Shown piece by piece: positions 1,503 to 24,411 of a stretch of DNA of 64,000 bases (the first letter of the stretch is position 1; the number at the start of each line of letters is the position of its first letter). Source of the stretch: a bacterium (lineage in GTDB: Bacteria > Patescibacteriota > Patescibacteriia > UBA9934 > GWF2-40-263); NCBI GenBank assembly GCA_021789915.1, contig JAJYIV010000002.1, forward strand, positions 613 through 64,612, in the 5' to 3' direction. The position numbers and the translations under genes are program-made. The notes beneath the pieces are model-generated. The model saw nothing but the letters and a program-made list of their open reading frames with translations, ran no database searches and was not told the DNA's origin.

Positions 1503-1508
1503 GGCGCG

Positions 1509-1767: not shown

Positions 1768-1782
1768 CGTAGAGCAGGAACG

Positions 1783-1814
1783 CATCCGACCGGACAACCG
1801 GCCGGATGTTTTCG
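1783..1814 (+). terminator. Hairpin plus T-run downstream of tRNA-Gln
   Basis: CATCCGACCGG-ACAA-CCGGCCGGATG followed by TTTTCG. Confidence 0.5.
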
Positions 1815-4627: not shown

Positions 4628-4666
4628 CAAAAACGGATCCGCGCGCGGATCCGTTTTTGTTGCCTT

Positions 4667-6261: not shown

Positions 6262-6311
6262 GCCGTCTTGCGATTGGTCGGAACGTCGGCTATTATAGCG
6301 CACGCCATCGC

Positions 6312-6385
6312 GCAGGTATAGTTTAGTGGCAAAACGACTGCTTCCCAAGCAGTAGTCGCGGGTCCGATTCCCGCTACCTGCTCCA
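6312..6385 (+). tRNA. tRNA-Gly (anticodon CCC), CCA encoded
   Basis: Acceptor GCAGGTA/TACCTGC, D-arm GTTT-AGTGGCA-AAAC, anticodon arm ACTGC-TTCCCAA-GCAGT, T-arm GCGGG-TCCGATT-CCCGC. Confidence 0.8.
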
Positions 6386-6510
6386 AAAATCCCCGACTTG
6401 GTCGGGGATTTTTGCTTGTAAACGGGATGGGGGGCGCAAAAAACGCCGCCTGTTCCAAGAGGGGAACGGGCGGCAGCGTCAGTCGGCGGAGGGCGGCGGC
6501 CGCAGAAACG

Positions 6511-7686: not shown

Positions 7687-7883
7687 GGTTCCTCCTTGGA
7701 AGGATCAAAAACGGCCGGGGGGTTTCCCGGCCGTTCGGGTCCTGATGCGCGTCACGCGCCCATCAGACCCCTGCCGCCGGGAAACGAAAAACACATAGAC
7801 GGGCGTCAAGAAGAATGGTCAGATCTCTCAAACGGCCCTTGTCCGACCGGACGTTTCTTGATATGGTGCCCGCGCTCAAGACG

Positions 7884-9296: not shown

Positions 9297-9439
9297 AGTC
9301 CTCGTCCCTCAGTTCCTTTGTTACTCTTTCCGTTCTTTCCGTCTTGTCCCTTTTCGGGACACTACCGGCGTTCGTTTCAACAAACGCCGGTATTTCTTTT
9401 TCTTCGGCGGGGATCGGAGAGTGTTGTAAATCTCCTTTT

Positions 9440-9568
9440 CTCGTCATTGCGAGGAGCTGGTCCCAGTCGTGGCGACGAAGCAATCCTGCAGTTTCCTTCG
9501 AGAACGGAAGGATTGCTTCGCTCCGGCCTCCGGCTTTCGCTCGCAATGACGAGTTTTGCAACGGTCTC
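9440..9568. repeat. Nested palindromic element (14-bp outer stem CTCGTCATTGCGAG/CTCGCAATGACGAG) ending in TTTTGCAACGGTCTC
   Basis: Nested inverted repeats (GAAGCAATCCT/AGGATTGCTTC; TTCCTTC/GGAAGGA); its 3' motif matches the 3' ends of elements at 13610..13713 and 24242..24411 and the motif at 8207. Confidence 0.45.
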
Positions 9569-9659
9569 TGATCGAACGCTTGACGCGGCGCTTGACGCTC
9601 CCTTCCCTCCCGTTCAACGTCCTTTATAATGAAGGGATACTCAATCATCCTTTCATCCT

Positions 9660-9797
9660 ATGAACGATTTCGGGACGTGCGAAAACTGCGGTGCGGAAGA
9701 TCAGGAGCTTGACGAGAACGGCCTGTGTCCGGACTGCAGCGCGCAGGGACACACGGAGCGCGGCCCCGACATGGGCGACGAAGAAGAGAGCGCCTAG
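9660..9797 (+). CDS. Small zinc-ribbon protein (45 aa, two CxxC pairs)
   Basis: MNDFGTCENCGAEDQELDENGLCPDCSAQGHTERGPDMGDEEESA; GC3-rich codons; TATAAT at 9625; its stop overlaps the murG stop convergently; below the length cut-off of the ORF track. Confidence 0.4.
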   Translation: MNDFGTCENCGAEDQELDENGLCPDCSAQGHTERGPDMGDEEESA

Positions 9798-10885
9798 CGT
9801 CCGGCCAGGGCGCGCACGCGTTCCGCCAGGCGTTCCGCGGCGCCTCCCGGGAACAGCGCCCCGATCCGTTCGGACAGGCGGCGCTGTTTTTCTTTGTCTC
9901 CGACAAGCGCCGCGACCTGCGCGACGAGCGCGGTCCCGCCGCGCGCCTGCTCCACGGCCACCGCCGCCCCGCGGCGCAGGACGGCGCGCGCGTTTTCCTC
10001 CTGCGGCGAGCGCGGCAGCGGCACGAGCACGCACGGCTTGCGCAGCGCCGAGAGCTCCGCAAGCGTGCCCATGCCGGCGCGCGCGACCACGACGTCGGCA
10101 GCCGCCAAGGCGTCGGCCAAATCGCGGCCAAGGAGCAGCTCCACGGCGGCGTAGCCGGGCCCGGCCGCGCGCAGGCCCTCGGTGACTTTCCCGCGGCCCG
10201 TCACGTGGATGACGTCGGCGACGGCGCGCATGCGCTCCATCCCCGCCTCAAACGCCCGGTTGATCCACGCCGATCCGCCCCCGCCGCCCAGCACGAGCGC
10301 CACCGGACGCGCGCCGGAAAAGCCGTAGCGCGCGCGGGCGGCCGACGCATCGCCGCGCAGGATCGACGGCCGCACGGGCTGGCCGACGACGAGCGTTTTG
10401 TCCTTCGGGAACGCCGCGGCCGTCTCGGGCCACGCGACGGTGATGAGCGACGCGGCGCCCGCACACAGGCGGTTGGACAAGACCGGCCGCACGTCGGGCT
10501 GATGGATCCACGACGGAATCTTGAACCGGCGAGCCAGCAGGACGAACGGCACGCCGGTGAAGCCGCCGGCCGAGGCGACGACGTCCGGCCGTTCGCGGCG
10601 GAGCAGGCGCCACGCGGCGAACAGCGCCGCGGCGGCTTTGAACGGGAACACCAGCCACTCGGCGGACGCGTAGCGCGTCAGGCGCGCCACGGGCACGGCG
10701 TGGAACGGAATGCCCGCCTGCTCCACCAGCGCGCGCTCCGGCCCGCGCGCCGTTCCCGCCCACGCGAACGACGCGTCCGGATCGGACGCGCCATGCCTGT
10801 CGGCAGGCAGGCGCAACGCTTCGGCGACGGCGAGCAGCGGCGTGACGGGACCAAGCGTTCCTCCGCCGGCAAAGAGGATTTTCAT
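9794..10885 (-). CDS. murG: UDP-N-acetylglucosamine--N-acetylmuramyl-(pentapeptide) pyrophosphoryl-undecaprenol N-acetylglucosamine transferase
   Basis: MKILFAGGGTLGPV start, glycine-rich MurG N-terminus and GT28 C-terminal domain. Confidence 0.8.
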   Translation of the reverse strand: MKILFAGGGTLGPVTPLLAVAEALRLPADRHGASDPDASFAWAGTARGPERALVEQAGIPFHAVPVARLTRYASAEWLVFPFKAAAALFAAWRLLRRERPDVVASAGGFTGVPFVLLARRFKIPSWIHQPDVRPVLSNRLCAGAASLITVAWPETAAAFPKDKTLVVGQPVRPSILRGDASAARARYGFSGARPVALVLGGGGGSAWINRAFEAGMERMRAVADVIHVTGRGKVTEGLRAAGPGYAAVELLLGRDLADALAAADVVVARAGMGTLAELSALRKPCVLVPLPRSPQEENARAVLRRGAAVAVEQARGGTALVAQVAALVGDKEKQRRLSERIGALFPGGAAERLAERVRALAGR

Positions 10886-10897
10886 AGCGGTAAGCCA

Positions 10898-10916
10898 ACA
10901 GCCGTCAGCCGTCAGG
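10898..10916. repeat. Heptamer array GCCGTCA x2, left arm of the inverted repeat bracketing the four-helix-bundle gene
   Basis: AGCCGTCAGCCGTCAGG is the reverse complement of CTGACGGCTGACGGC at 11338..11352. Confidence 0.6.
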
Positions 10917-11280
10917 GATTGGCCTTCGGCCTCGAAGAACACAAGACGTTCAACATACGCAAAACTTCATGCAAGAGACAGTCGGCTCGATCGTAATCGA
11001 GTGAACCGGTTCTCGGAAGCCGCCGAGCGATCGAGAGTTGCGTCTGAAGCTCGGCCGCCGAACCGTAAGCGATCGAGAGGAACCTGGCAAACTCATTGTC
11101 GTAGCCGCGCATCTTCCCTTCCGCGATATTCGATGGAATGGAAACCGCTGCTCGTCTCATTTGGCTTGTTAAACCGAATCGTTCGTCCGTCGGGAAAGAG
11201 TCGGTCAAGAGGTAAATCTCAAGGGAAAGATCCATGGCTTTTTGCCAGACAATGAGATCTTCGTATGGTCCTGTCGACAT
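10912..11280 (-). CDS. Four-helix-bundle protein (TIGR02436 / 23S rRNA intervening-sequence protein family)
   Basis: 122 aa, MSTGPYEDLIVWQKAMDLSLEIY... with the AVSIPSNIAEG signature; local GC is lower than surrounding sequence; inserted between murG and ftsW. Confidence 0.75.
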   Translation of the reverse strand: MSTGPYEDLIVWQKAMDLSLEIYLLTDSFPTDERFGLTSQMRRAAVSIPSNIAEGKMRGYDNEFARFLSIAYGSAAELQTQLSIARRLPRTGSLDYDRADCLLHEVLRMLNVLCSSRPKANP

Positions 11281-11322
11281 ATTGGTTCGCATGGTTGGCG
11301 TCAAATACGCGAGACGCTCGTG

Positions 11323-11352
11323 CCTGATGGCTGATGGCTGACGGCTGACGGC
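11323..11352. repeat. Heptamer array (CTGATGG x2, CTGACGG x2), right arm of the inverted repeat bracketing the four-helix-bundle gene
   Basis: seen directly. Confidence 0.6.
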
Positions 11353-11360
11353 CCGCCCCA

Positions 11361-12536
11361 TCACGCTATCTTCCGATGCTTCGAAATGTTCAGCACGACG
11401 CCGATCGCCGAGAGCAGCACCGCCAGCGACGTGCCGCCGTAGGAGACGAACGGCAGCGTAATGCCCGTCATCGGCATGATGGCGAGCATGGAACCGACGT
11501 TCACGAAGGCCTGCACGATGATCCACGCGGCGATGCCGACCACAACGTATTTCGAAAACGCGTCCGGCGCGCGCTTCGCCACCGTCAGCAGGCGCTGGAA
11601 CAGCAGGAGGAACAGGCCGATCAGGACCGCGCAGCCGATCAGGCCGAGCTCCTCGCCGATGACGGCGAAGATCGAGTCGCTGACGGCTTCCGGCAGGTAC
11701 TGGAATTTCTGGCGCGAATGGCCGTAGCCGAGCCCGAAGACGCCTCCGGAACCGATGGCCAAGAGCGCCTGGTTGACGTGATAGCCGATGCCCTGCGGAT
11801 CGAGCTGCGGGTTCAGGAACGTCATCAGGCGCGCGGCGCGGTACGGCGCGATCTTTATGAGCAGCGCCAGGCCGGAGGCGCCGGAAACCACCAGCCCCGC
11901 GATATACGGCAGCGGCGCGCCGGCGACGAAATACACCGCCAGGGCCTGCACGACGACGACGGACATCGTCCCGATGGCCGGTTGCGCGATCAGCAGGAGA
12001 AGGACGGCGCCGAGCGCGACGAGGAAGGGGACGAGGCCCGTGGAAAAACGGCGCATGCCGTCGGCGCCGCGGCGCTCGAGCCAGGCGGCGAGATAAAACA
12101 GAAAGGTCAGCTTGACGATTTCCGACGGCTGGAAGGAAAACCACGGACCGATGGAAATCCAGCTGTGCGCGCCGTTGATGTTGCCGGAGGAAATACCCGG
12201 GACGAAGACGAGCACGAGGAGTCCGAGCGAAGCCGCGAAGATCTTCATGGCGTGCCGGCGCCAGAACGTGTACGGCACGCGGCTGCACGCATACAGGCCG
12301 ATCAGCCCCGGCAGCAGGCCGAACACGAACTGGTGCTTGACGTAATAGGACGCGTCGCCGAACTGGTCGAGCCCCATGCCCGTGCCCGCCGACGCGAGCA
12401 TCAGCAATCCGAAAAGAAGGAGCGCCGCGACCAGGGCGAGCAGGACATAATCGACGCGATGAGGATCTTTCAGCGGCATGAGAACGGAAAGATGCTGAAC
12501 AGGCTCTTGGGCGTTGGCTAATGGCGAACGGCTCAT
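11361..12536 (-). CDS. ftsW: Peptidoglycan glycosyltransferase FtsW/RodA (SEDS family)
   Basis: 391 aa polytopic membrane protein with SEDS conserved blocks. Confidence 0.8.
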   Translation of the reverse strand: MSRSPLANAQEPVQHLSVLMPLKDPHRVDYVLLALVAALLLFGLLMLASAGTGMGLDQFGDASYYVKHQFVFGLLPGLIGLYACSRVPYTFWRRHAMKIFAASLGLLVLVFVPGISSGNINGAHSWISIGPWFSFQPSEIVKLTFLFYLAAWLERRGADGMRRFSTGLVPFLVALGAVLLLLIAQPAIGTMSVVVVQALAVYFVAGAPLPYIAGLVVSGASGLALLIKIAPYRAARLMTFLNPQLDPQGIGYHVNQALLAIGSGGVFGLGYGHSRQKFQYLPEAVSDSIFAVIGEELGLIGCAVLIGLFLLLFQRLLTVAKRAPDAFSKYVVVGIAAWIIVQAFVNVGSMLAIMPMTGITLPFVSYGGTSLAVLLSAIGVVLNISKHRKIA

Positions 12537-12543
12537 GACTTTT

Positions 12544-13602
12544 TCAAATCAGCGCGTCCAGCAGGGCAAGGGCGACGCCCAGCGCCGCGGCGACATACGC
12601 GACGACCCACAGGCGCATGACGATTTGCGGCTCCGGCCAGCCGCGCGCTTCCAAATGATGGTGGAACGGCGCGGACAGGAAGAGCTTGCGCTTGAACAGG
12701 CGCCGCCAGGCAAGCTGGAGCAGCACGGACAGCGATTCCAGCACGAACACGAATCCGATCACCGGCAACAGCAGGGCGGCGTTCGTCAGCATGGCGATGA
12801 CGCCCAGCGTGATGCCGAGCGACATGGATCCCGTATCGCCCATGAAGAAACGCGCCGGGTGGATGTTGAACCACAGGAAGGCGAGCAGGCCGCCGATGAC
12901 GGCGGCGCAGAAGACGGCCAAATCGTATTTGCCCTGCGCGAACGCGATCAAGGCGTAGGCGGCATAGGCGGGAAACAGGACGCCGCCGGCCAGGCCGTCC
13001 AGGCCGTCCGTCTCATTGACGGAGAAGGCCGTCGCGATGAGGACGGCCATGAAGACCGGCACGTACCACCAGCCGATGTCGAAGGTGCCGAAGAACGGCA
13101 CGTGCAGGATGCGCCAATCGAGCTTGACCGTGAACCACCAGGCGCCGACGGCGGCGATGGCCGCGTAAATGAGCAGGCGGTGGCGGGCGCGCAATCCGCC
13201 GCCATGCGCGCCGATGCGGCGGATGTTGAAATAATCGTCCACCAGGCCGACCAGCGCCGAGGCGACGAGGGCGCCGAGCGGCAGCAGCGTCTGCGCGCGC
13301 GTCAGGAAAGACAGCCGCGCGAACGCCGAATCCGGCAGCAGCCAGCCGAGCAGCGCGCACAGGAGGATCACGGCGAGCACCGTTCCCCACACGAGCAGCC
13401 CGCCCATGGTGGGCGTGCCCGCCTTCCTGGCATGCAGCCTGGCATAGACCGGCGTCTCTTCCGCCAGACGGATCGATTTGCCCATCTTGTGCGATTCCAG
13501 CCAATGCAGCAGCGCCGGCGCCCACAGGAACGCCAGCAGGAACGTAAGCGAGGCGATGACCAGAAGGCGGATCAGCTGGAAAGACGCGAGAGGGAGAGTC
13601 AT
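12544..13602 (-). CDS. mraY: Phospho-N-acetylmuramoyl-pentapeptide transferase
   Basis: 352 aa; motifs DDxxN, NxxNxTDGLDGLA, HHHLE typical of MraY. Confidence 0.85.
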   Translation of the reverse strand: MTLPLASFQLIRLLVIASLTFLLAFLWAPALLHWLESHKMGKSIRLAEETPVYARLHARKAGTPTMGGLLVWGTVLAVILLCALLGWLLPDSAFARLSFLTRAQTLLPLGALVASALVGLVDDYFNIRRIGAHGGGLRARHRLLIYAAIAAVGAWWFTVKLDWRILHVPFFGTFDIGWWYVPVFMAVLIATAFSVNETDGLDGLAGGVLFPAYAAYALIAFAQGKYDLAVFCAAVIGGLLAFLWFNIHPARFFMGDTGSMSLGITLGVIAMLTNAALLLPVIGFVFVLESLSVLLQLAWRRLFKRKLFLSAPFHHHLEARGWPEPQIVMRLWVVAYVAAALGVALALLDALI

Positions 13603-13609
13603 ACACGCT

Positions 13610-13713
13610 GAGACCCCTGAAAAACCGATGGGTGTTCGTTGTCCGCCGGAGGCGGATCCGGCTCTGCCGGAAATGGACTGCGGAACCCGCGAGACGAACA
13701 GGCGCGATTTTGC
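13610..13713. ncRNA. Structured element A with 10-bp terminal inverted repeats GAGACCCCTG...CAGAGGTCTC (MITE-like or intercistronic RNA; sits in the mraY leader if transcribed on the minus strand)
   Basis: Shares architecture and conserved single-stranded segments with element B at 24242..24411; internal hairpins CGCC-GGAG-GCGG, CCGGC-UCU-GCCGG and GCGG-AAC-CCGC. Confidence 0.5.
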
Positions 13714-13720
13714 AGAGGTC

Positions 13721-14116
13721 TCACAGGTTAAGCAGCACCATGAAGGTGGACGCGATGAGCAAGACGGTTTCGACGAACACGGTCAGGCCGAGAAAAAACA
13801 AGGCGATGAGGCGCTCGCGGCGGAAGGCCCAGGCGCCCACGGCGACATTCACCGCAAGGACGGCCAAGCCGAAGGCGGCCGGCGTGAAGAGCCGCCACCA
13901 CGGCCCGAACTGGTCCACGCCGAAATAAACCGTGCCGTGCAGCGGCACGTACATGCCCGGCGTCGCGCGCGGAAAGACTTTCCAAAACGGCAGGAAGGCC
14001 GTGAGCGCGACAAGCAGGAGAGAGACGGCGGTCAACCACCGGTAGGCGCGCGAACGGGCGAACAGATCGCGGAGAGAGGCGGCAGCGGCCCCCGACGCGT
14101 GACGGAGCGCGCGCAT
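13721..14116 (-). CDS. Hypothetical membrane protein
   Basis: 131 aa, 3-4 hydrophobic helices. Confidence 0.5.
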   Translation of the reverse strand: MRALRHASGAAAASLRDLFARSRAYRWLTAVSLLLVALTAFLPFWKVFPRATPGMYVPLHGTVYFGVDQFGPWWRLFTPAAFGLAVLAVNVAVGAWAFRRERLIALFFLGLTVFVETVLLIASTFMVLLNL

Positions 14117-14117
14117 A

Positions 14118-14402
14118 CTACTCGGCCGCAGGGATTTTTCGCCCGGCAGGGCCCGGGATGCCGACGTCTTCCGCCGTGGCCGACGCCGTCACTTCCTTCA
14201 CCCACGGCAACGCTTCCTGCAGCGCCATCTCAACGCCCATCCTGAGCGTGATCGCCGACATCGGGCAGCCGTGGCAAGCGCCCTGCAGGCGGACGCGCAC
14301 GACGCCCGTGGATTCGTCGAAATCGACCAGTTCGATGTCGCCGCCGTCCATGCGGAGCGCCGGCCGCACCCGTTTCAAGATTTCCTCGATTCGTTCGCGC
14401 AT
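14118..14402 (-). CDS. NifU-like Fe-S cluster assembly protein (Nfu C-terminal domain)
   Basis: GACHGCPMS CxxC motif; start taken at MRERIEEIL. Confidence 0.65.
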   Translation of the reverse strand: MRERIEEILKRVRPALRMDGGDIELVDFDESTGVVRVRLQGACHGCPMSAITLRMGVEMALQEALPWVKEVTASATAEDVGIPGPAGRKIPAAE

Positions 14403-14482
14403 AGGCGTGCAGAGTATAGCCCGAGGCGGGTCTTTGGCGCAATCAAAACGCCCCGTCTGCATGCAGGCGGGGCGCGTTTTTC

Positions 14483-14761
14483 TTACTTCGTTTCGACGCG
14501 GGCGAAGGTGCGCGTCTGCAGCTTGCCGGCGAAATTCGGCATGCGCTTCTTGGCGAACTTCACGATGCCGTCGACGGCCGCATACAGCGTGTCGTCGCCG
14601 CCTTGGCGCATGTTGGCGCCGGGATGGATCTTGGTGCCGCGCTGGCGCACCACGATCTGGCCGGCCTTGGTGACCTGTCCGTCGGCAATCTTCACGCCCA
14701 GGCGCTGACCATGGGAATCGCGGCCAAGGGTTGTGGAACCTGTCGCTTTTTTGTGAGCCAT
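14483..14761 (-). CDS. rpmA: 50S ribosomal protein L27
   Basis: MAHKKA...[18 protein letters not shown]... diagnostic of L27. Confidence 0.9.
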
Positions 14762-14771
14762 AAAGGAAAGC

Positions 14772-14800
14772 TTTTAGCCATTAGCCTTTAGCCATGAGCC
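14772..14800. repeat. Heptamer tandem array (TTAGCCA/TTAGCCT)
   Basis: GCTTTTAGCCATTAGCCTTTAGCCATGAGCC; same family as arrays at 21876, 26863, 55766 and 59468. Confidence 0.55.
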
Positions 14801-14885
14801 GGAAAAACCGACAGACTGGCAAGCGAATGCGGGCAGTGTAGAGGAAGGACGGCCGGACGTCAAGGCACAACCTTAGAGCACAACC

Positions 14886-16211
14886 TTAGAGCCTGTTCAT
14901 CCGGCAGACGAAGCTCTTCAAATACGCCGCCTCGGGGAAATACACGGACAACGGATGATCCGGGCTCTGACGCACGACCTCGAGCACCTGCAGGTCGACG
15001 CCCGCCTGCACCGACGCGCGGCGCAGCAGGAAGACCAAGTCCTCCTCCGGCAGGAAATGCGAACAGCTGGACGTGATGAAGATGCCGCCGTCCTTCACGA
15101 GCTTGAGCGCGGCGCGGTTCAGGAAATGATAGGCCTTCTTCCCTTCCTCGGCGTCCTTCATCGACTTGATGAGCGCCGGCGGATCCATAACGACGACGTC
15201 GAAAGCGCCGGCAACCCCCTCAGACTCCCCCTTGGCAAGGGGGAGATGGTGCGGGTTGGCGAGCCACTGGAAGACGTCCGCTTTCTCCGTCGCGCAGACC
15301 TCGTCGGACAAGCCGGCCGCCGCCGCCTGCGCGCGCAGCGATGCCAGCGCTTCCTCGGATCCGTCGACGTTCAGGACGGATTTCGCCCCGCCGGCGAAAG
15401 CGGCGAAGGACGTGGCACCGGTGTATGAAAAGAGATTCAGAACCGTCTTCCCTTGCGCGAGCGCGGCGACCCGGTCGCGCAGGTCCTTCTGGTCGAGGAA
15501 GAATCCCGTCTTTTGTCCGTGAAGAGGATCGGCGACGCAACGCCGGCCGTGCTCGAGAAATTCGACTTGACCCAATGCGCGTCCTCCCCTTTCCAAGGGG
15601 AGGCTGCCTGCTGGCCGCTTTTCAGCAGGCGGAGGTGTTGCCGGCGTGTGAATTCTGACGACCGCCTCCAGGTTCTCCTCGCGCCGGCTCGGCATGTCGC
15701 TGCGCTCGACGATCGCGCGCGGCTTGAACGTCTCTTCCAGCGCGGCGACGACGTCGTCACGCAGCGCGTCGAGACCGGCGGTTGCGATCTGGCATACGAG
15801 CACGTCGCCGTAGCGGTCGACGACCAAGCCCGGAATCCCGTCGGACTCGCCGAACACGCAGCGGTAGCCGGTCGTGAACTTCTCCCCCTTTTCAAGGGGG
15901 AGACTCTGCTCCAGAGGGGGTCGAGGGCCGTATCCCATCAAAACCCGTTTCTGGTGCGCATCCGCGATCTTGGCCGCCAGCCAGGCGCGGTCGATGACGG
16001 CCTCTTTGAACGCAAACACGCGCACGGCGATGGACGAGCTGGCGGAGTACGTCCCCGTGCCGATGATGCGCCCCTGGCGGTCCGCGACGTGCACGAGGGC
16101 GCCATGCTCGGGTTTCTTCTGACCGTCGGCCAGCGCGCGCGAAAAAATCCACGGATGGCGGAAGCCGACATTGGCCTCCTTCCCTTCTTTGAGCTTCAGG
16201 ACGGGGTACAT
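14886..16211 (-). CDS. rlmI: 23S rRNA (cytosine-C5)-methyltransferase RlmI (PUA + class I SAM MTase) carrying in-frame repeat insertions
   Basis: MYPVLKLKEGKE... PUA N-terminus and an Ado-Met MTase domain; 442 aa versus about 395 typical; extra segments coincide with repeat copies at 15225, 15583 and 15882. Confidence 0.75.
   Translation of the reverse strand: MYPVLKLKEGKEANVGFRHPWIFSRALADGQKKPEHGALVHVADRQGRIIGTGTYSASSSIAVRVFAFKEAVIDRAWLAAKIADAHQKRVLMGYGPRPPLEQSLPLEKGEKFTTGYRCVFGESDGIPGLVVDRYGDVLVCQIATAGLDALRDDVVAALEETFKPRAIVERSDMPSRREENLEAVVRIHTPATPPPAEKRPAGSLPLERGGRALGQVEFLEHGRRCVADPLHGQKTGFFLDQKDLRDRVAALAQGKTVLNLFSYTGATSFAAFAGGAKSVLNVDGSEEALASLRAQAAAAGLSDEVCATEKADVFQWLANPHHLPLAKGESEGVAGAFDVVVMDPPALIKSMKDAEEGKKAYHFLNRAALKLVKDGGIFITSSCSHFLPEEDLVFLLRRASVQAGVDLQVLEVVRQSPDHPLSVYFPEAAYLKSFVCRMNRL
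15225..15245. repeat. Partial family-P hairpin (CTCCCCCTTGGCAAGGGGGAG) inside rlmI
   Basis: seen directly. Confidence 0.55.
15583..15648. repeat. GC-rich palindromic repeat (family P, forward orientation) in-frame inside rlmI
   Basis: CCTCCCCTTTCCAAGGGGAGG-CTGCCTGCTGGCC-GCTTTTCAGCAGGCGGAGGTGTTGCC; near-identical to 63803..63868. Confidence 0.75.
15882..15922. repeat. Partial family-P hairpin (CTCCCCCTTTTCAAGGGGGAG) inside rlmI
   Basis: seen directly. Confidence 0.55.
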
Positions 16212-16333
16212 AGGAAATTCGTGAAGATAGATGCGCGAGAAGAAAGCGAGTATGACAGAACGCCGCCGTCTTGTCGAGGAGAAGGCCGCGCCAAGAAAAA
16301 GCCCTCGTCCAGCGCTGGACGAGGGAGAGTCTT

Positions 16334-18099
16334 TCAAGTGGCGTTCCCGATGTTGTGCCGGCAGTGATCCGGCAGCATCGGCTGCAGCTTCCTGCGGAAG
16401 GCGGACGGCACGCGCTGCCACAGCAGGCGCGCCGCTTCGGGCTCGGCGGCGAGTCCCCAGAAGAGATCCTTCCATCCGTCGAGGCCGACGCCCTTCACGA
16501 AATCGTCCGGCTGGTCGCGGGTAAGGAACGCGAGCAGCCACGCCAGGAAGCGGAAGTCCCCGCCCCACCGGACGCCGAATCCCGGACCGACGGCCTGTAC
16601 AAGTCGGTGCGGCGTCAGAGATCCGTCGAACGCGCCGGACGCGAACAGCGCGAGGATGCCGTCGCGCAGCGGTTGTTCGCCGGCTTCCCACGCGTGCATC
16701 CAGAACCCGAGATCGAGGCGCTTGTTGTCGGGCCGCAGAATTTCCGGACCGAGATGACGCACCGCCACGTTGAGGCACGCGTGCACATCCGACGGCGGCA
16801 GATCGCTCGCGATGACCGCCGCCCACGGATACTCGTCTCGCATGCGCCGCTTCACGTCCGACGGCCATCGTTCGGCCCCGCCGAGGTATTGGCGCAGCAG
16901 CTTGGGCGGCAGTCGCAGCAGCACGTTCGCGTCCGCCGTCGCGACGACCAGGTCGGCGATCGTGCGCGACGCGCCGACGCCGTGGACGAAGATCCAGGCC
17001 GACCACGTGCGCAGCACTTCCTCTTCGCCCACGTCGATGTCGTCGCTCGCGAGAAACCGCGCCTTCACGGCGTCCACGAACGCGAGGAACGACTCCCTGG
17101 CGAACGCGACGAACGCGTCTTCGTCGCGCGAATCGTCCAACGGAACCTTGTCAAAGATGCGCTCCGGTTCCATGCACACGGTCGACAGCCGCAGCCATCG
17201 GCGCAGCGCGTCGACGGCCGCCGGCAATCGGCGCGCCACGGCCTGCGGCTCGAAGAACGTCCGCTCGACCAGATCCTTGAGCGCCAGCGGCTCGACCTGG
17301 AAGTTCAAATCCATGAAGCGGTCGAGGGACGTGCCGAGCCCGCCCGACACCGGGAGGAACAACGCATCCGGAAGCGTGAGCGCCCGGACGAAGTAGCTGC
17401 GGACGAACAGGTCCAGCAAGCCGCCGTGCGGGCACGGCGCGTCGACAGCCGGACGCCGGAACAGCCGGCGGACGTACACGTTGATGATGTCGTCGCCGCT
17501 GAACCAGCCTCGGATCGGGAACTGCTCCGCCGCCCGGCGCAGCAGCCGTTCGTTCTCGTCGCACGAAGCGACAGCGGCCAGGTACGCGGCGCGATCGGAC
17601 GGCGCGGACGCGCCGCGCGCGAGCGAGGCCAGCGCCTGCTCGCGCCCGACGCTCAGAAGCCCGAAGGCCGAGCCGCTGAGTACGACGACGTTCCGCCGCG
17701 ACAGGGACGCGGCGCGCACGGCGAGCTCCGAAAGGAGCGCGGCGCCGACACCGTACATCTCGAACAGCGACGCGGCACGCAGCATCACGACCGCGGCGTC
17801 CGCGTCGCCCTCCGCCGCTTCTTCGAGGCCGAGCGACAGGCACGCGCCGACGCGTTCCATGGCGGCGCGCCGGCCGTCCGGCTGCAGGAGATCGAGCTTC
17901 CGCTCGGCCGCCGCCTGAACAAGGCAGGCCTGCACGGCGTCCGCATCCGCGTCGCGCGCGGCGAGCTCCGCGTCCTGCCGGGCCCGCGCGTACGCGGCGC
18001 GGAAGAACGCGGAGGCGGTGCCCGGCTCTCGGCATTCGGCGCTCGGCGCGCGGAACGACCGCGCGAGCGCGCCTCCCGCTTGAACAATCGCCGTGTTCA
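16334..18099 (-). CDS. Hypothetical protein (about 588 aa), GTG start overlapping the upstream stop (GTGA)
   Basis: Long GC3-rich ORF; no motif recognised; N-terminal third Ala-rich and helical; the listed 736-aa ORF is an upstream over-extension. Confidence 0.5.
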
Positions 18100-18939
18100 C
18101 GGCCGCTCCTTCTCCGCGACGACCGCCTGCGCACGCAGCCGCTCGATGAGCGACTTCGCACTGACGGCGCTCGTGCGCGTCTTCGCTTCCTCCTGCGTCC
18201 GGCGCAGCAGCGCGGCGGCGCCCTCGGTCACCTCGACCGTCGCCGGGTGCGCGTCGAGCCAGTCGAACCGCTCTTCGAGCACGTGCAACGCGAGCGTCTG
18301 CCGATCGCCGGTGTTCATCCAGTAGACCACGGCGGAAGCGGCATTGAACGCCGCGGCGGCGATCTGCGTCACCCGCTCTTCCGCGTCTTCCGCGTCCAGC
18401 AAGGCGAGCGCCCAGTACTCGGCAGGCATCGCCTCGAGCGCCGCGCGCTTCCACGCGGCGTCGTTGCCGCTGTCCAGGACGGCGACGAGACGCTCGTACG
18501 CCTCGCTCGCGCGCACCTGGCACGGAAAGTTGCGGACGCCCCACAGCGTCACGGACGTCCCGACTGGATTGAAGTGGAGCGGGACGAGCCGGTTCCCCAG
18601 CGTCTTCACGAGCCCGCGCGCCTTGAGCGCCGCGTACTCCGCCGCCGACAGCTCGAAGTACCCGCCGTCCGCCAGCTCGTCGCCAAACCGGCCGAAGACC
18701 GGATCGAACACGTGCGCATCGCGCCGCAACACCTCTGGCACCTGCCCGGTCGCAAGCGCGGCGATGACGGCGCTGCGCGCGCTGCGCGTCGGCAGCGTCA
18801 GGAGCGCGGCGGCGACCTGCACGGCCGGCAGCGACGCGACGGCCGCCAAGCCTTGCGGCGTGTCGAGCCGAACGATCGAAACCGGCACGCCCGCCGGACG
18901 CGCGAGAGCTTCCGTCTGGTTTTGAAGGGTCTCACCCAT
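18097..18939 (-). CDS. Hypothetical protein (about 280 aa)
   Basis: Start MGETLQNQ preceded by GGAGGAAG SD; translationally coupled to the downstream 588-aa gene. Confidence 0.5.
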   Translation of the reverse strand: MGETLQNQTEALARPAGVPVSIVRLDTPQGLAAVASLPAVQVAAALLTLPTRSARSAVIAALATGQVPEVLRRDAHVFDPVFGRFGDELADGGYFELSAAEYAALKARGLVKTLGNRLVPLHFNPVGTSVTLWGVRNFPCQVRASEAYERLVAVLDSGNDAAWKRAALEAMPAEYWALALLDAEDAEERVTQIAAAAFNAASAVVYWMNTGDRQTLALHVLEERFDWLDAHPATVEVTEGAAALLRRTQEEAKTRTSAVSAKSLIERLRAQAVVAEKERP

Positions 18940-19051
18940 CTGTCTTCCTCCGAGGAAGCCTGGGCACCCGGGAATCGGATGCGCAGGCGGCCGAAGGAAG
19001 ACGGCGGACCATAACAATAAAACCGCCGCGTGTCAATCAAAAGCCGTCCGC

Positions 19052-19477
19052 TTACGACGCCAGCCCGAGCTTTGCCTCGACGACCTGCAAACGCCCCTCG
19101 AAGCGATCCATCCGCAAGGTCGGCGCGACCAGCTCCTGCTCGATCGTCAGCTGCAGCCGCGCCACCTGGTCGCTCACGGCAAGGACTTCCTGACGAACGT
19201 CTTGAAGATCCTCCTTTGTCGCGAAACGGTCGAAATCGTCTTTCGTGGCAAAGTTCTGCAGATCGTCTTTCGTGGCAAAGTTCTGCAGATCGTCTTTCGT
19301 GGCAAAGTTCTGCAGATCGTCTTTCGTGGCAAAACGGTCGAAATCGGCCTTCATTGCCACATTCTCCTTTACGAAACCGATGAATTCGTGCATTTCCGAC
19401 GTTAAACCTTCGACCTTCCGTTCAAGGCCATCGAACTTCTGCGCCAGCTGATTTGTCGTCAGGTGTTCCTCACTCAT
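19052..19477 (-). CDS. Coiled-coil protein with four tandem 9-aa repeats (FATKDDLQN), low-GC gene
   Basis: 141 aa; encoded by 27-nt tandem DNA repeats; GC clearly below flanking sequence. Confidence 0.6.
   Translation of the reverse strand: MSEEHLTTNQLAQKFDGLERKVEGLTSEMHEFIGFVKENVAMKADFDRFATKDDLQNFATKDDLQNFATKDDLQNFATKDDFDRFATKEDLQDVRQEVLAVSDQVARLQLTIEQELVAPTLRMDRFEGRLQVVEAKLGLAS
19215..19345. repeat. 27-nt tandem repeat (GATCGTCTTTCGTGGCAAAGTTCTGCA, about 4.5 copies) inside a CDS
   Basis: Near-perfect direct copies seen directly. Confidence 0.8.
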
Positions 19478-19595
19478 ATATCGCTTCGAAGTATACGTCC
19501 TGAATTAAATCGCTTCAAACGAAAAGATCCCGCGTCTGTTTCAGACAGGGGATCTTTTGTCTCTGTGTGCATTTAAGCGGAAAAAACGGGTTTCG

Positions 19596-20252
19596 TCAAT
19601 CGTCGTGTGTGGATATCTTCCGCTCCTTCAACAAGATAAGCGCCCGTCCAGACAACGGATTCTTAAGAATGCCTTCGATCTTCCACGCCGCCTCCTTGAA
19701 ATGAATGCCTTCCCCTTCCAATTGCTTCTTCCATCGAGTGAGCGGCACCGCATGCAGTCCGCCGTCTAAAGCGGCGGCAGGCGCATCGATTTCTTCCAGG
19801 TCCATCACGTGAATGGCGATGCCGCCTTCCCGTAACGCATTCCATGAATTCATCAGGACGTCCCACTGCTTTTCCGTCTCGATGAACTTCAAGAAGACGT
19901 GCGCGTACGTGATGTCGTACGGCCCGCCGGGGAAAGGTTTTGTCGCGTCATGTCGAATGACGCCAGGCGCCCCAGCAAGATGCTCGATAGCAATGTCCGA
20001 GGTCGTGAGATCGACGTCTCGACCCAACAATGACGAAAAGATGCGACGATGGTGATCGATGAAGCGCCTGTCCCCGCATCCGACGACGAAGATGCGAACG
20101 TGTTCATGCGCAGGATGACAAGGAACAACCGAAAAGATAGTTTTCAATTCCCGTTCCTTGATGTCTGCTCGGCGTTGAATTTCCGCATCGGACAGCGCCG
20201 CATACTTTTTGTGATAGTCGGAGAGGGCCATATGAATTTTTCTATTGCGCAT
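19596..20252 (-). CDS. Class I SAM-dependent methyltransferase-like protein (low-GC)
   Basis: Motif I VVGCGDRRF, acidic end of beta-2 (DLTTSD), motif IV-like DITYAHVFL. Confidence 0.5.
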   Translation of the reverse strand: MRNRKIHMALSDYHKKYAALSDAEIQRRADIKERELKTIFSVVPCHPAHEHVRIFVVGCGDRRFIDHHRRIFSSLLGRDVDLTTSDIAIEHLAGAPGVIRHDATKPFPGGPYDITYAHVFLKFIETEKQWDVLMNSWNALREGGIAIHVMDLEEIDAPAAALDGGLHAVPLTRWKKQLEGEGIHFKEAAWKIEGILKNPLSGRALILLKERKISTHDD

Positions 20253-20253
20253 T

Positions 20254-21864
20254 CTATTTCGCGACCGCCTTCAGGAACGCCCTGAACAGCGGATGCGGCT
20301 TCAGGGGCGAAGACTGGAACTCGGGATGGAATTGCACGCCGACGAAAAACGGATGATCCTTCAGCTCGATGATCTCCACGAGCTGACCGTCCGGAGACGT
20401 GCCGGCGACCACCAGCCCCGCCTTCGTCAGCGTCTCGCGGTACGCGTTGTTGAACTCGTAGCGGTGGCGGTGGCGTTCGCGGATCGCCGCCGTCCCGTAG
20501 GCGTGGCGGCTCACCGTCCCGGGCTTCAGCGCGCAGTCCCAGCTGCCCAGGCGCATCGTCGCGCCGTATTCGCGGTTCAACAGCTTTTTTTCCTGATCAG
20601 GCATGATGTGGACGACGGCGTGCGGCGCCTGCGGATCGATTTCCGTCGTATGCGCGCCCTTCAGTTCGCACGCGTCGCGGGCGAATTCGACGGCGGCCAG
20701 CTGCATGCCGTAGCAGAGGCCGAAGTACGGAACTTTTTTCTCCCGCGCGTAACGGATCGCCGCGATCACGCCTTCGATGCCGCGCGAACCGAAGCCGCCC
20801 GGCACCAGGACGCCGTCATAGCCCGCAAGGATTTTCTCCGCTCCGTGCTTTTCGATGTCCGCCGCGTCGATCCACGTGATCGCCGGCTTGCGGCTGATGG
20901 CCCACGCGGCGTGCTTCACCGCTTCGATGACGGAGATGTACACGTCGGAAAGCATGAAATCGCCGACGGCGAAATACTTGCCGACGATGGCGATCTTCAC
21001 GTCCCTCTTTGCGCGCCGGATCGCGTCGACGACGTCGCGCCACGGCTTCAAATCGGCGCGCTTCGGCTTGAGGCCGAGCCGCGCGAGCAGCCGCTGCGCG
21101 AAGCGCTGGTCTTCCAGGATGAGCGGCACCTCGTAGATCGATCCGCAATCCGGGTTGCTGATGACGTCCTCCTTGGCGACGTTGCAGAACAGCGCGATGC
21201 GCTCCTTGCGGCGGCCGTCCATCGCCTGCGACGAGCGGCCGACGACGAAATCCGGCTCGATGCCCATGCCGTTCAGCATGCGGACGCTCTGCTGCACCGG
21301 CTTCGTCTTCATCTCGCCCAGCGCGCCGGGAATCGGCAGGTACGCGACATGCACGTGCGCGACGTTCTTCGGCTCGCGGCGGCCGAGCAGGCGCGCCGCC
21401 TCGAAGAAGATGCCGTTCTGGTACTCGCCGACGGTGCCGCCCAGCTCGACGACGCAGATGTCGGCGCCCTGCCCGCCCAGCTTGAAGCGGCGGATGATCT
21501 CGTCGGTGACGTGCGGAATCGCCTCGACATCTTCGCCTTCGTAGGCAAACGCGCGCTCGCGGCGCAGCACTTCCGCGTACACCTGGCCCGTCGTCGCGTA
21601 CTGCGCGCGATGCAGCGGCCGGCCGATGAAGCGCTCGTAGTTGCCCAGGTCCTGGTCGGTTTCCAACCCGTCTTCCGTGACGAACACTTCCCCGTGTTCC
21701 GAAGGGCGTATGGTGCCGGCGTCCTGGTTCAGGTACATGTCCACCTTCATCGGCGCGACGCGGTAGCCGCGCGCTTCCAAGAGCGCCGACAACGACGCGG
21801 CGGTGATGCCTTTGCCGAGGCCGGAGATGACGCCGCCGGAGACGAACACGTACTTGGTGGGCAT
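20254..21864 (-). CDS. pyrG: CTP synthase
   Basis: 536 aa; N-terminal synthase domain plus C-terminal glutamine amidotransferase (GLCYGMQ, HPEF). Confidence 0.9.
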   Translation of the reverse strand: MPTKYVFVSGGVISGLGKGITAASLSALLEARGYRVAPMKVDMYLNQDAGTIRPSEHGEVFVTEDGLETDQDLGNYERFIGRPLHRAQYATTGQVYAEVLRRERAFAYEGEDVEAIPHVTDEIIRRFKLGGQGADICVVELGGTVGEYQNGIFFEAARLLGRREPKNVAHVHVAYLPIPGALGEMKTKPVQQSVRMLNGMGIEPDFVVGRSSQAMDGRRKERIALFCNVAKEDVISNPDCGSIYEVPLILEDQRFAQRLLARLGLKPKRADLKPWRDVVDAIRRAKRDVKIAIVGKYFAVGDFMLSDVYISVIEAVKHAAWAISRKPAITWIDAADIEKHGAEKILAGYDGVLVPGGFGSRGIEGVIAAIRYAREKKVPYFGLCYGMQLAAVEFARDACELKGAHTTEIDPQAPHAVVHIMPDQEKKLLNREYGATMRLGSWDCALKPGTVSRHAYGTAAIRERHRHRYEFNNAYRETLTKAGLVVAGTSPDGQLVEIIELKDHPFFVGVQFHPEFQSSPLKPHPLFRAFLKAVAK

Positions 21865-21875
21865 AGGGGGAAGCG

Positions 21876-21912
21876 GTTAGCCATTAGCTGTTAGCCGTTA
21901 GCTTCTAACTGT
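21876..21912. repeat. Heptamer tandem array (TTAGCCA/TTAGCTG/TTAGCCG/TTAGCTT)
   Basis: seen directly between pyrG and rplI. Confidence 0.55.
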
Positions 21913-21950
21913 TGACGAGAAACGGAAACACCTGCGGCGAGCGCAGGTGG

Positions 21951-22397
21951 TCAAGGAGACGGTTCGACAATGAGGGTGAATGAGGCTTCCGCCGTCGGGG
22001 CGAGGCGTGCGACGATCTTCGAGGTACCGGCGTTCTTCACGGGCTTGAACCCGGCGAGCGCGTGCTCGGGAACGGCGAACCCGGCTTTCGCGAGCGCCTC
22101 CGCGACCGTGCGCGGCGTGACGGCAGCGTAGAGATGTCCGGTTTCGGTGGCGGATTCCTTGAGGACGAGGCGGAACCCGTTCAGCCGCCGCGCCGTCTGC
22201 TGCACGGTCCCCGTCGCCTGCTTTGCCCGGCGGGCTTCGGCGTCCTTCTTTTCCTTGAGTCGGCGCCGCGCGTCCGCCGATGCCGGCACGGCCGCGCCCG
22301 AGGGGAGCAGCTGGTTGCGCGCCTGGCCGTCGGAGACCGTCACCATGTCCCCGGCCCGACCCAATCCTTTGACGGCCTTCACGAGAATGACATCCAT
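21951..22397 (-). CDS. rplI: 50S ribosomal protein L9
   Basis: MDVILVKAVKGLGRAGDMVTVSDGQARNQLLP... L9 N-domain. Confidence 0.85.
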   Translation of the reverse strand: MDVILVKAVKGLGRAGDMVTVSDGQARNQLLPSGAAVPASADARRRLKEKKDAEARRAKQATGTVQQTARRLNGFRLVLKESATETGHLYAAVTPRTVAEALAKAGFAVPEHALAGFKPVKNAGTSKIVARLAPTAEASFTLIVEPSP

Positions 22398-22485
22398 AGC
22401 ACGGCGGCAGTATACGCCCGCGCGGCGTCAGCGGGAAATCGCGGGCGGTGGATAACGCGGACGGGGACAGTTCTATTTCCGTTTG

Positions 22486-22652
22486 ACATCTGCGTGTTCG
22501 CCGGTCTTCCCGCCTTCTGTACATCCGAGAAGGACGGCATGGTCGTCACCCTCCCCTACCCGTTAGCGAACGGTCGGGAGAATTCTGTCAGCTTCCGACT
22601 CCGCGGGAAGACAACGGTCCTCGCCGCGCCGCACATCGTCTACGTCCACTGA
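22486..22652 (+). pseudogene. 3' fragment (about 55 codons) of a paralog of the small membrane protein gene at 24740..25207; no plausible start codon
   Basis: ICVFAGLPAFCTSEKDGMVVTL...APHIVYVH aligns with ACVFGGLPAICETSKRGTDVAVFL...APHIIYVP; the downstream 81 bp is nearly identical. Confidence 0.55.
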
Positions 22653-22706
22653 CGCACGCGCGTCCGCGCGGTTCGTGAGCCCGACGCTCACGGCCGCCGC
22701 GGGCGC
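22625..22706. repeat. Left copy of an 81-bp direct repeat (4 mismatches to 25181..25261)
   Basis: GCGCCGCACATCGTCTACGTCCACTGACGCACGCGCGTCCGCGCGGTTCGTGAGCCCGACGCTCACGGCCGCCGCGGGCGC; contains palindromes GTGAGCCCGACGCTCAC and CGCGCGTCCGCGCG. Confidence 0.8.
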
Positions 22707-22749
22707 GATCTTTTTTGTAAACCAAACCCCGCCAGGTTTCTTTTTTGCC

Positions 22750-23205
22750 TCATGTCACTTCGTCGCGAACCGCCGCCAGCAAATCTTCCAACCGCGCGAA
22801 CAGCGGCAACCGGAACCGGTCGCAAACCATCTCGACGTTTCCCTTGCGCCAGAATCCGTCCGGGCAGCACACCAGGACGTGCTTGTCCTTCACCAAGCCG
22901 AGCTCGAGCAGGCTGATCGGACTCTTGGTCGCCGGATCGAAATAAAACGCGACGACGTCCGCCCGGTCGAGTCCGTCCATCTCCCACGTGACCTGCCGGT
23001 TGAACTCGGGGTTCGCCATGGATTGCTTCCAGGAGGCGTCCCATGCGGCACGCCGCGGATTCAGCACGGTCGCGTCGGTGTCCGCGAGCGCGGCGACCGC
23101 TTTCGCCTGCCAGGGTTCGGCGGCCCCCATCTCGATGCTGCCGGCGAGGAAGACGACGGGGGACGCGGCGTCGGCGAAGGAATCGGGCGGCTGGATGTGG
23201 CGCAT
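22750..23205 (-). CDS. Nucleoside 2-deoxyribosyltransferase-like protein
   Basis: 151 aa, PVVFLAGSIE...VCCPDGFW Rossmann-like NDT fold; the rest of the listed 487-aa ORF is GC-driven read-through. Confidence 0.55.
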   Translation of the reverse strand: MRHIQPPDSFADAASPVVFLAGSIEMGAAEPWQAKAVAALADTDATVLNPRRAAWDASWKQSMANPEFNRQVTWEMDGLDRADVVAFYFDPATKSPISLLELGLVKDKHVLVCCPDGFWRKGNVEMVCDRFRLPLFARLEDLLAAVRDEVT

Positions 23206-23343
23206 AGGAAGGAGACGGCCGTCTTTGTACCACGGCGCCCCGATCGGCGCGAGCCGCGGATGGCAGGCGGCGATTGACAAGGTGCGAAAAAAGACCGAAG
23301 GTACCCGCGGTTCATCGCGGCCGCAAGCCGCACGGAGGGAACC

Positions 23344-24144
23344 ATGATTTCCGAGACGAAGATCGAGATCGTCACGCACGTAACGATAGAGGAACAGCCC
23401 GGCCGGAACGTCTGCGCGAACGACTATCGCAGCATTCTGCCACGACCCAACGACGACGGCATCCTGCTCGACCGGGAGACGGTCGAGCGCTTGTTCGCCG
23501 CGACGGATCTCGATGCGTTCCTCTCGTCCCTGCCGGGAATCTCGACGGATACGTGGCACCGTCACGCCGTCCTCGCGAACGTCATCAAGTTCTCGGAACC
23601 GACGGACGGAAACGCGTTCGGCATCGTCCTCGCCTGGACGACGAAGCGCCACCCCGCCTTCGGCGGCGATCCGACGAGCATGATGGATTACGCCATCGGC
23701 GTGCTCCCCGTGCCGACCGAAACGGCGGCGGTGGCCGCGAAGCTCTTCGCGCGCCGCTCGCTCCTGGCGGACTTGAAACTCGACGACCGCGGCCAGCGCG
23801 AACGGCAGGAGGAAATCCTGAAGGCCATCGGATGGGACGACGGAGCCGAGACCGCGCAGGCGCTGCGCGCGCTGCGCGAGGAGATGATGAGACGCTTGGA
23901 CGAGCTCACAAAAGCGCTCGAGGCGCGCGAGCGGGCGCGGGTGCAGGCCGTCCTCGGCTTGGCCGGCGTGTCGAGCGCTCAGCTCGACGCGCGCGTCGCG
24001 GACGTCGATGGTCAGCTCGACGCGGCGTTCAATGCGATGGCGACGGATCCGAAGCGGCTCGAACCTACGGCGCTCGCGAAGTGCGAGCTCGACATCTACG
24101 GCGCCGTTCCGCCCATCCTGCACGCAAGACTCACGGCCCAATAG
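23344..24144 (+). CDS. Hypothetical protein (266 aa)
   Basis: SD GGAGGG 6 nt upstream of ATG; GC3-rich; no family recognised. Confidence 0.5.
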   Translation: MISETKIEIVTHVTIEEQPGRNVCANDYRSILPRPNDDGILLDRETVERLFAATDLDAFLSSLPGISTDTWHRHAVLANVIKFSEPTDGNAFGIVLAWTTKRHPAFGGDPTSMMDYAIGVLPVPTETAAVAAKLFARRSLLADLKLDDRGQRERQEEILKAIGWDDGAETAQALRALREEMMRRLDELTKALEARERARVQAVLGLAGVSSAQLDARVADVDGQLDAAFNAMATDPKRLEPTALAKCELDIYGAVPPILHARLTAQ

Positions 24145-24241
24145 CCGTTCTCGACGCCTCTCCGCGAGGCGTTTTTCTTTTCGGGTTCGAAAAAGCTCCA
24201 ACGGGATCGCCACCGCGGCGGGTATCGCTTTCTTTGGAGCT

Positions 24242-24411
24242 AAAGAAAGATTGAGACCTCTGAAAAACTGATGGATTTTCGTTGTCAGCCAAAGGCTGAT
24301 CAGCCTCTGGCTGAAATGGGCTGCCGAGCCCCGCGAACCCTACTGAAACGTAGGGAGAGCGGGGTCGGCGGGCGCCCATGAAACGAAAAGACGCCGTTTT
24401 GCAGAGGTCTC
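24242..24411. ncRNA. Structured element B with 10-bp terminal inverted repeats GAGACCTCTG...CAGAGGTCTC (homologous to element A)
   Basis: Compensatory changes relative to A: CAGCC-UCU-GGCUG versus CCGGC-UCU-GCCGG, and UUUUCGUU/AACGAAAA versus UGUUCGU/ACGAACA; conserved CUGAAAAAC-YGAUGG, AAUGG and UUUUGCAGAGGUCUC segments. Confidence 0.55.

Follow-up and report, generated by a model that had tools for sequence, protein, structure and literature searches.

The closest described relative of the proteins considered here is the Pfam family DUF6178 (PF19676). A literature search for both names found no paper that mentions this family, and membership in it is uninformative on function because of this. 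Genomes of Patescibacteria are small and hold many genes without an assigned function, and we report here on a 64,000-nucleotide stretch of one such genome, which is high in GC (assembly GCA_021789915.1, contig JAJYIV010000002.1, forward-strand positions 613 to 64,612; hereafter the window). Between pyrG and an rlmI-like gene it carries two overlapping genes for proteins of 280 and 588 residues (the pair, with a small and a large partner), preceded by a methyltransferase-like gene and a gene for a small repeat protein. The large protein and all 23 relatives tested match DUF6178, and one relative, P0019 (MFH1631525.1), is named 'DUF6178 family protein' by NCBI. The family to which the large protein belongs differs from DUF6178 as described in having about 350 further residues outside the profile, and in always being accompanied by a separate upstream partner of which the profile gives no description.

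We favour, at a probability of roughly 55%, the reading that three independent units were inserted at this site and that the pair encodes a cytoplasmic, likely non-enzymatic two-protein complex under translational control. The elements of the pair unit are as follows.

19008..19036, minus strand: promoter of the pair, TTGACA and TATGGT separated by a 17-nucleotide spacer with TG (consensus scan, 10 of 12 matches)
18942..19002, minus strand: leader hairpin of the pair messenger RNA, the 3' arm of which holds the Shine-Dalgarno sequence GGAGGAAG, with the ATG 3 nucleotides later
18097-18939, minus strand: gene for the small partner, 280 residues
16334-18100, minus strand: gene for the large partner, 588 residues, GTG start
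16302..16325, minus strand: intrinsic terminator 3' of the large gene, a stem of 10 bp, 7 of them GC, before a T-rich tail (terminator scan)

The stop codon of the small gene and the start codon of the large gene overlap as GTGA, and an AAGGAG Shine-Dalgarno sequence lies 5 nucleotides upstream of the GTG. This overlap had been pointed out by an earlier reading made from the letters and translations of the window (the sequence-only reading), which took the pair for an uncharacterised and translationally coupled unit, and that description is supported. A profile of the large protein was searched against 1.84 billion representative sequences and returned 27 clusters at 50% identity, 14 of which are full-length relatives with 25-43% identity. 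A gene of about 253-285 codons was found directly upstream of the large homologue and on the same strand in 12 of 12 independent loci (the window, L001, L006, L007, a JGI contig, L009, L010, L091, L092, L119, L121 and L074). Within the core family, the arrangement of the genes ranges from a 4-nucleotide overlap to a 21-nucleotide gap. The small partners are homologous to one another, with 29-45% identity within the core family (49% between those of L121 and L092) and hhalign probabilities of 94-99.8% for the distant members. The two proteins have also diverged in step, as the normalised similarities of small and large proteins correlate with r = 0.90 over 55 locus pairs. Because adjacency and common strand hold across 12 independent loci and the two proteins co-diverge, the pair is a true two-gene module. 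The sequence-only reading had staked its case on the two genes staying neighbours in other genomes and on neither protein showing remote homology to a housekeeping family; all loci examined keep the adjacency, and no such homology was found for either protein. Narrower searches recovered far less of the family. Word-indexed homologue searches yielded one other lineage for each protein, to which a 14-sequence profile added nothing, and a search of GTDB species representatives with narrow patterns from a two-sequence alignment found no relatives of the pair, a result with little bearing on the wider family.

The flanks of the pair differ nearly everywhere, with rnc/nusB, ComM, pyrH, a PIF1 helicase and gyrA among the neighbours. 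L092 (637-9203) and L121 (925-10791) have a common order of TGT, a 125-residue gene, ClpB, small gene, large gene and MraY-family glycosyltransferase, and this common neighbourhood indicates vertical inheritance of the pair in their lineage. Neither flanking direct or inverted repeats that would mark a mobile element in the window, nor an integrase or transposase beside the pair at any locus examined, were found, and P0019 gave no match in a tblastn search of plasmids. In L001, the nearest foreign lineage, RNase III and nusB lie just downstream of the pair. Just upstream of it, on the opposite strand (3224-7748), are genes for an AAA_15/AAA_21 ATPase and for a type IIG restriction-modification enzyme of 1054 residues with Eco57I/MmeI-type domains. 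The small gene is GC-rich in several loci (L009:282-1043, L010:2267-3124, L092:5161-5931 and L001:8124-8897). In low-GC hosts its GC content at third codon positions (GC3) is far above that of the neighbours and of the adjoining large gene, at 0.86 versus 0.41-0.53 in L009 and 0.79 versus 0.50-0.61 in L092. The GC-rich stretch of L009 consists of the small gene and the first ~350 nucleotides of the large gene. Such GC-rich small genes may be due to transfer, to gene conversion or to codon selection.

The match of the 588-residue protein to DUF6178 scores 30.5 bits (E 1.8e-7, gathering cut-off 25.5) and covers 88 of the 561 profile positions (304-391), while its relatives cover at most positions 251-455. 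All 24 aligned large members match DUF6178 alone at E values up to 5, with a best value of 6.7e-13; most scores lie near the cut-off, and some relatives fall below it when scored singly. The N-terminal ~250 and C-terminal ~100 positions of the profile are unmatched, and no match runs along most of its length. By these profile scores the 588-residue protein is a divergent member of the DUF6178 superfamily. The sequence-only reading had seen no recognisable motif in either of the two large open reading frames. That holds for the small protein, and for the large protein it has to be amended by this weak and partial match.

The structure of the large protein was predicted with AlphaFold from the 24-sequence alignment, and the resulting model (predicted local distance difference test score, pLDDT, 85; predicted template modelling score 0.63) is nearly all helix with three short hairpins. 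Foldseek searches of the PDB and of viral models with this structure gave no E value below 0.05 and no template modelling score above 0.25, and the matches were all to HEAT/ARM-type solenoids. Short parts of the model, covering 49-153 of the 588 residues, weakly resemble HEAT/ARM/TOG solenoids and the helical, armadillo-like repeats of FliG or of the MgtE N-domain; at the sequence level there is no match, and this may be a likeness of build more than a sign of membership. As modelled, the large subunit thus appears to be without a convincing solved or viral structural counterpart. A sequence search of the PDB with the large-protein profiles found no match either, and no catalytic family was found for the large protein in Pfam, NCBIfam, PHROGs, PADLOC or the PDB sequences. 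The protein is of near-neutral isoelectric point and has no transmembrane segment. In the 14-sequence alignment, most of the invariant residues are aromatic or structural; a few are charged, namely D52, E154, R216, R234, D515 and R517. One member of the large family, P0017 (L119:6001-10698, 1565 residues), carries seven C-terminal Pfam INT_rpt repeats, on which a literature search found nothing useful; its upstream partner of 275 residues is homologous to the other small partners (hhalign probability 99.8%).

The small protein has no match in Pfam, NCBIfam or the PDB. It is acidic, with an isoelectric point of 5.4 here and of 4.6-5.1 in relatives, lacks a conserved transmembrane segment and is predicted to be soluble, with a mostly helical structure that includes a short beta region. 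The sizes of the two partners raise the possibility that the pair is a single-chain DUF6178 protein split in two, with the small protein supplying the N-terminal ~250 profile positions and the large protein the rest plus an extension, in which case the complex would simply rebuild one ancestral protein. The large members indeed match just positions ~250-455 of 561 and start near that point, the small partner at ~255-285 residues is about the size of the missing half, and the two genes are strictly adjacent. However, none of the 12 small partners matches DUF6178 even at E values up to 10, hhalign does not relate the small family to the large one, and no fusion of small and large was seen among the 27 family representatives. 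We consider a split origin unlikely.

Upstream of the small gene, a TTGAC(A/G) box, a spacer of 17 or 18 nucleotides and a -10-like box were found 40-70 nucleotides before the gene in all 11 pair loci tested. A strict form of the promoter pattern is present in 7 of the 11; its background frequency is 0.08 per kb. In the window, the leader hairpin begins near the predicted transcription start. The 81-nucleotide fold containing it has a predicted energy of -44.1 kcal/mol (z = -4.4). The leader of L001 has the same architecture with -50.6 kcal/mol (z = -8.2), and there the start codon is buried too. The RNAalifold consensus of the two sequences comprises 24 pairs, of which 4 are compensatory and 0 broken. 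Window and L001 agree with a mean column identity of 75% across the aligned upstream region (promoter plus leader), compared with 43-45% identity in the pair proteins. A stable fold with covariation, the features expected of a leader that buries the ribosome-binding site, was thus found from two sequences. The motif occurs once in the window and is unique among the loci compared, and Rfam gave no match at E values up to 1 within 16100-20400 and four tRNAs alone in the whole window.

These properties suggest that, in this subclade, the leader gates translation or stabilises the 5' end. The nearest described elements are RNA thermometers (ROSE, fourU) and similar operators. As in these, the Shine-Dalgarno sequence is part of the 3' arm of a stable 5' hairpin, immediately ahead of the start codon, here that of the small gene, and the fold is kept with compensatory changes in a second lineage. 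The leader differs from them in having no Rfam match and in its occurrence in 2 of 11 lineages. Typical RNA thermometers are also far less stable than the roughly -44 kcal/mol of the fold containing this leader. The hairpin may be opened by cleavage (for instance by RNase III), by a helicase or by a protein factor, or it may act mainly in stabilising the 5' end.

We propose that the small and large proteins form a stable heteromeric complex in the cytoplasm, since the two are always adjacent, usually translationally coupled and diverging in step. Such a complex would act by binding, as a scaffold, adaptor or regulator, instead of by catalysis, and a binding surface could be provided by the aromatic and Arg/Glu residues that are conserved in the large subunit. 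In the subclade with the leader, synthesis of the pair would be repressed at translation by the hairpin that buries the ribosome-binding site, with the unit as a whole being self-contained between its own sigma-70-type promoter and terminator.

Several points weigh against this proposal. The argument for a physical complex comes from co-conservation and co-divergence, and the small-protein model, built from a 2-sequence alignment, is unusable at a pLDDT of 47. A helical fold is compatible with catalysis, and E154 or R216 may be catalytic. The leader hairpin is absent from the nine other lineages compared, so translational gating is not a family-wide feature. As for the three-unit organisation, the promoter and terminator calls behind it are consensus matches, and the absence of the inserted genes from relatives covers the 10 kb around pyrG, not whole genomes.

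The sequence-only reading had placed the genes in the kind of context where novel defence or modification modules turn up. The pair could be a toxin-antitoxin-like, abortive-infection or other anti-phage module, in which the acidic upstream protein would neutralise the large effector or sense for it and the leader would keep expression low. Burying the ribosome-binding site in a hairpin would make sense for a harmful product, and other features also fit: the unit is autonomous, with its own promoter and varied contexts; the family is rare, its 27 clusters being set against 1.84 billion representatives; in several genomes the pair exceeds its host locus in GC content, which is suggestive of transfer; and in L001 it adjoins the type IIG restriction-modification gene and AAA_15 ATPase. 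However, defence-type neighbours occur at that locus alone among the 12, a small sample, the other 11 having housekeeping-type flanks, and in L092 and L121 the synteny among housekeeping genes is stable. Searches across 24 large and 6 small members gave no consistent PADLOC match. In PADLOC-DB 2.0 the large protein, the repeat protein and the methyltransferase have no match, and a marginal Cas8a match of the small protein (E 0.005, 14 bits) was absent in 5 of 5 homologues. Domain searches turned up no sign of an effector, whether nuclease, HEPN, Fic, kinase, NTPase or another kind, and neither pair protein matches a toxin or antitoxin family in Pfam, NCBIfam or PADLOC, as a type II toxin-antitoxin system would. 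The large protein has no relatives in viral contigs, nor were relatives found among viral predicted structures. Codon usage of the pair is genome-typical in the window, and no integrase or transposase flanks it anywhere. The expected defence context therefore failed to materialise, and we regard a defence role as doubtful.

A different proposal would make the pair a lineage-specific housekeeping accessory of Patescibacteria, a helical scaffold linked to envelope or division machinery or to proteostasis. The neighbourhood offers some encouragement, with the pair lying between ClpB and the MraY-family glycosyltransferase in L092 and L121, near a GT4 glycosyltransferase in L007 and, in the window, five genes before mraY-ftsW-murG, which has the same orientation. 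The neighbours named above vary among the other loci, the family is far too rare for a general function in Patescibacteria, and the pair is missing at the syntenic site of the closest relatives, all of which make this proposal rather improbable. A more ambitious version of the pair's biology, which we regard as speculative and unlikely, is that it represents an undescribed two-protein system of Patescibacteria-type loci, with a large-subunit fold without solved counterpart, silenced by a very stable leader hairpin and serving as an addiction, defence or host-interaction module of episymbionts. Horizontal spread of the pair would be part of it, because of the GC-rich islands in low-GC hosts. 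Should the pair turn out to be selfish or to serve defence or symbiosis, it would represent a new type of system; if it is the binding complex that we favour, a scaffold of this kind would provide context for DUF6178. What has been gained is a well-delimited module, not the discovery of a function: one conserved module has been separated from its chance neighbours, its boundaries, promoter, leader and terminator are defined, DUF6178 gains a confidently modelled all-helical structure along with an obligate partner, and two genes with a 61-nucleotide leader make a compact experimental target.

The other features of the block between pyrG and the rlmI-like gene, and the two flanking genes, are given below.

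20254-21864, minus strand: pyrG
19596-20252, minus strand: methyltransferase-like gene, 218 residues, low GC
19513..19558, minus strand: intrinsic terminator 3' of the methyltransferase gene, a hairpin with 17-nucleotide arms (19522-19558) followed by TTTTCGTTT
19490..19518, minus strand: promoter-like site before the repeat gene, TTGAAG-17-TATACT (consensus scan, 9 of 12 matches; a consensus match only)
19052-19477, minus strand: repeat-protein gene, 141 residues, low GC (open reading frame and translation)
19235..19333: 27-bp tandem repeat, 3.7 copies, in frame within the repeat-protein gene (Tandem Repeats Finder, 100% matches, score 198)
14886-16211, minus strand: rlmI-like gene

Read along the minus strand, which carries them all, the genes are L9, pyrG, those for the proteins of 218, 141, 280 and 588 residues, the rlmI-like gene, L27, NifU and mraY, so that four co-oriented genes do lie between pyrG and rlmI as first described. 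The description of their composition was accurate as well. GC content is 0.47-0.55 over ~19000-20400, compared with 0.65-0.76 in the surroundings, and GC3 dips to 0.63 in the methyltransferase gene and 0.70 in the repeat gene against 0.79-0.90 in neighbouring genes. The pair is genome-typical in this respect, with GC3 values of 0.90 for the small gene and 0.88 for the large gene.

The sequence-only reading further held that all four genes are co-transcribed, in which case a single operon might couple the methyltransferase and the repeat protein to the pair as a modification module. Their proximity and common orientation speak for this, as does the methyltransferase gene abutting pyrG. The block is nevertheless divided from within. 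The terminator behind the methyltransferase gene, which coincides with inverted repeat I16 (arms 88% complementary, 3-nucleotide loop), folds over 96 nucleotides with -29.6 kcal/mol (z = -4.3), and promoter-like sites precede both the repeat gene and the pair. Because of this terminator and these two sites, the block between pyrG and rlmI is best read as three separate units and not one operon. The two halves of the block also contrast sharply in composition. Nor do the genes occur together elsewhere: no other pair locus in the set of 12 carries a methyltransferase or repeat gene, and the methyltransferase family lacks the pair and the repeat gene nearby in 25 loci. A single four-gene operon is highly improbable in the face of these data, and the claim of co-transcription is not supported. 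In the three-unit organisation, unit 1 would be a stand-alone class I S-adenosylmethionine (SAM) methyltransferase gene, probably read through from pyrG because its open reading frame begins 1 nucleotide past the pyrG stop codon, and ended by the strong terminator. Unit 2 would be the small repeat protein with a promoter of its own, and the pair would be unit 3.

The methyltransferase-like assignment of the 218-residue protein was upheld by Pfam. Its residues 57-147 match Methyltransf_11 with 24.0 bits against a cut-off of 21.2, and the glycine-rich SAM-binding motif I can be read in the translation as VVGCGDRR (GCGD), so that both the score and the GxGxG-type motif are those of the class I SAM methyltransferases (Methyltransf_11/25). 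It differs from described members of the class in having neither a function named by NCBIfam nor a close solved structure, no match in solved structures falling below E 0.09. The public annotation of the metagenome-assembled genome starts the gene at the ATG at 20231, which gives 211 residues. Metagenome contigs with GC contents of 0.27-0.58 yielded 25 homologues at 44-55% identity. The genes next to them show no consistent recurrence and do not include pyrG, the repeat gene or the pair. No restriction or defence gene is linked to the methyltransferase here or in the 20 homologous loci with clustered neighbours, and a scan of viral contigs found no relatives. The atypical codon usage and the presence of homologues in unrelated, mostly lower-GC contigs suggest that this is probably a stand-alone enzyme gained horizontally. 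In 6 of the 20 clustered loci (L103, at 1460-4985, L112, L111, L109, L107 and L099), cysteine-rich paralogues of ~535-620 residues with many CxxC motifs, often in tandem, lie beside the methyltransferase homologue.

The 141-residue protein contains three exact FATKDDLQN units and two degenerate ones (FATKDDFDR and FATKEDLQD). The tandem repeat described earlier is thus real, although the count of four exact 9-residue units was too high by one. At the DNA level the degenerate flanking copies of the 27-bp repeat group in repeat family D1, and the perfection of the repeat suggests a recent expansion. The protein is probably helical. Its repeat region matches PHROGs 19741 and 30808 (E 5e-9 and 5e-8), both of unknown function. 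These and CCDC90-like/DUF1640 proteins are the closest described short tandem-repeat helical proteins, but Pfam gives sub-threshold matches only (CCDC90-like E 0.03, 14.6 bits against a cut-off of 33.5), and the protein is without a transmembrane anchor. It has no close relatives in viral contigs and a single marginal match in phage genomes (E 9e-4). Since the GC content and GC3 of the repeat gene are atypical, as are those of the methyltransferase gene, both would be foreign to this genome, and we infer a horizontal origin for the repeat gene as well.

The history of the site was examined through pyrG. The closest pyrG genes among one-per-species genomes have 72-74% identity and are mostly labelled Candidatus Uhrbacteria (Patescibacteria). 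In the four closest loci that extend past the gene (L011, L012, L014 and L015) the order is L9-pyrG-(156-465 bp)-rlmI, and tblastn searches of 80 pyrG loci, with 10 kb on either side of pyrG, detected none of the four proteins. Because rlmI directly follows pyrG in the closest relatives found, the block of methyltransferase, repeat gene and pair is an insertion in this genome. A later profile search recovered one distant homologue of the large family among the pyrG loci, in L074. This locus (Candidatus Uhrbacteria RIFCSPHIGHO2_02_FULL_53_13) carries at 18664-21509, 7 kb from pyrG, a distant pair of 645 and ~272 residues, with a metallo-beta-lactamase-fold gene and gyrA immediately downstream. 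The group of beta-lactamase-fold gene and gyrA also lies a few kb from the pair in L001. In L011 a 120-residue open reading frame lies between pyrG and rlmI. The interval between rlmI and L27 holds about 3 kb extra in L011 (13242-16221) and L015 (13150-16037), and the two genes are adjacent in the window. Since this gap differs between the closest relatives and the window, the stretch from pyrG to L27 is variable at more than one point.

A contig of GCA_027328745.1 (locus L004) matches window positions 9417-24329 over 14.9 kb with 99.88% identity, 12 mismatches and 3 gaps, and the copy number of the 27-bp repeat is equal in both. Because the similarity ends after those 14.9 kb, the window is a different, longer assembly of a population near-identical to that contig. 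Beyond L9, the window contains an unannotated open reading frame of 266 residues (23344-24144, plus strand) and a small nucleoside deoxyribosyltransferase-like gene (22750-23205, minus strand), which the public annotation assigns to Nuc_deoxyri_tr2.

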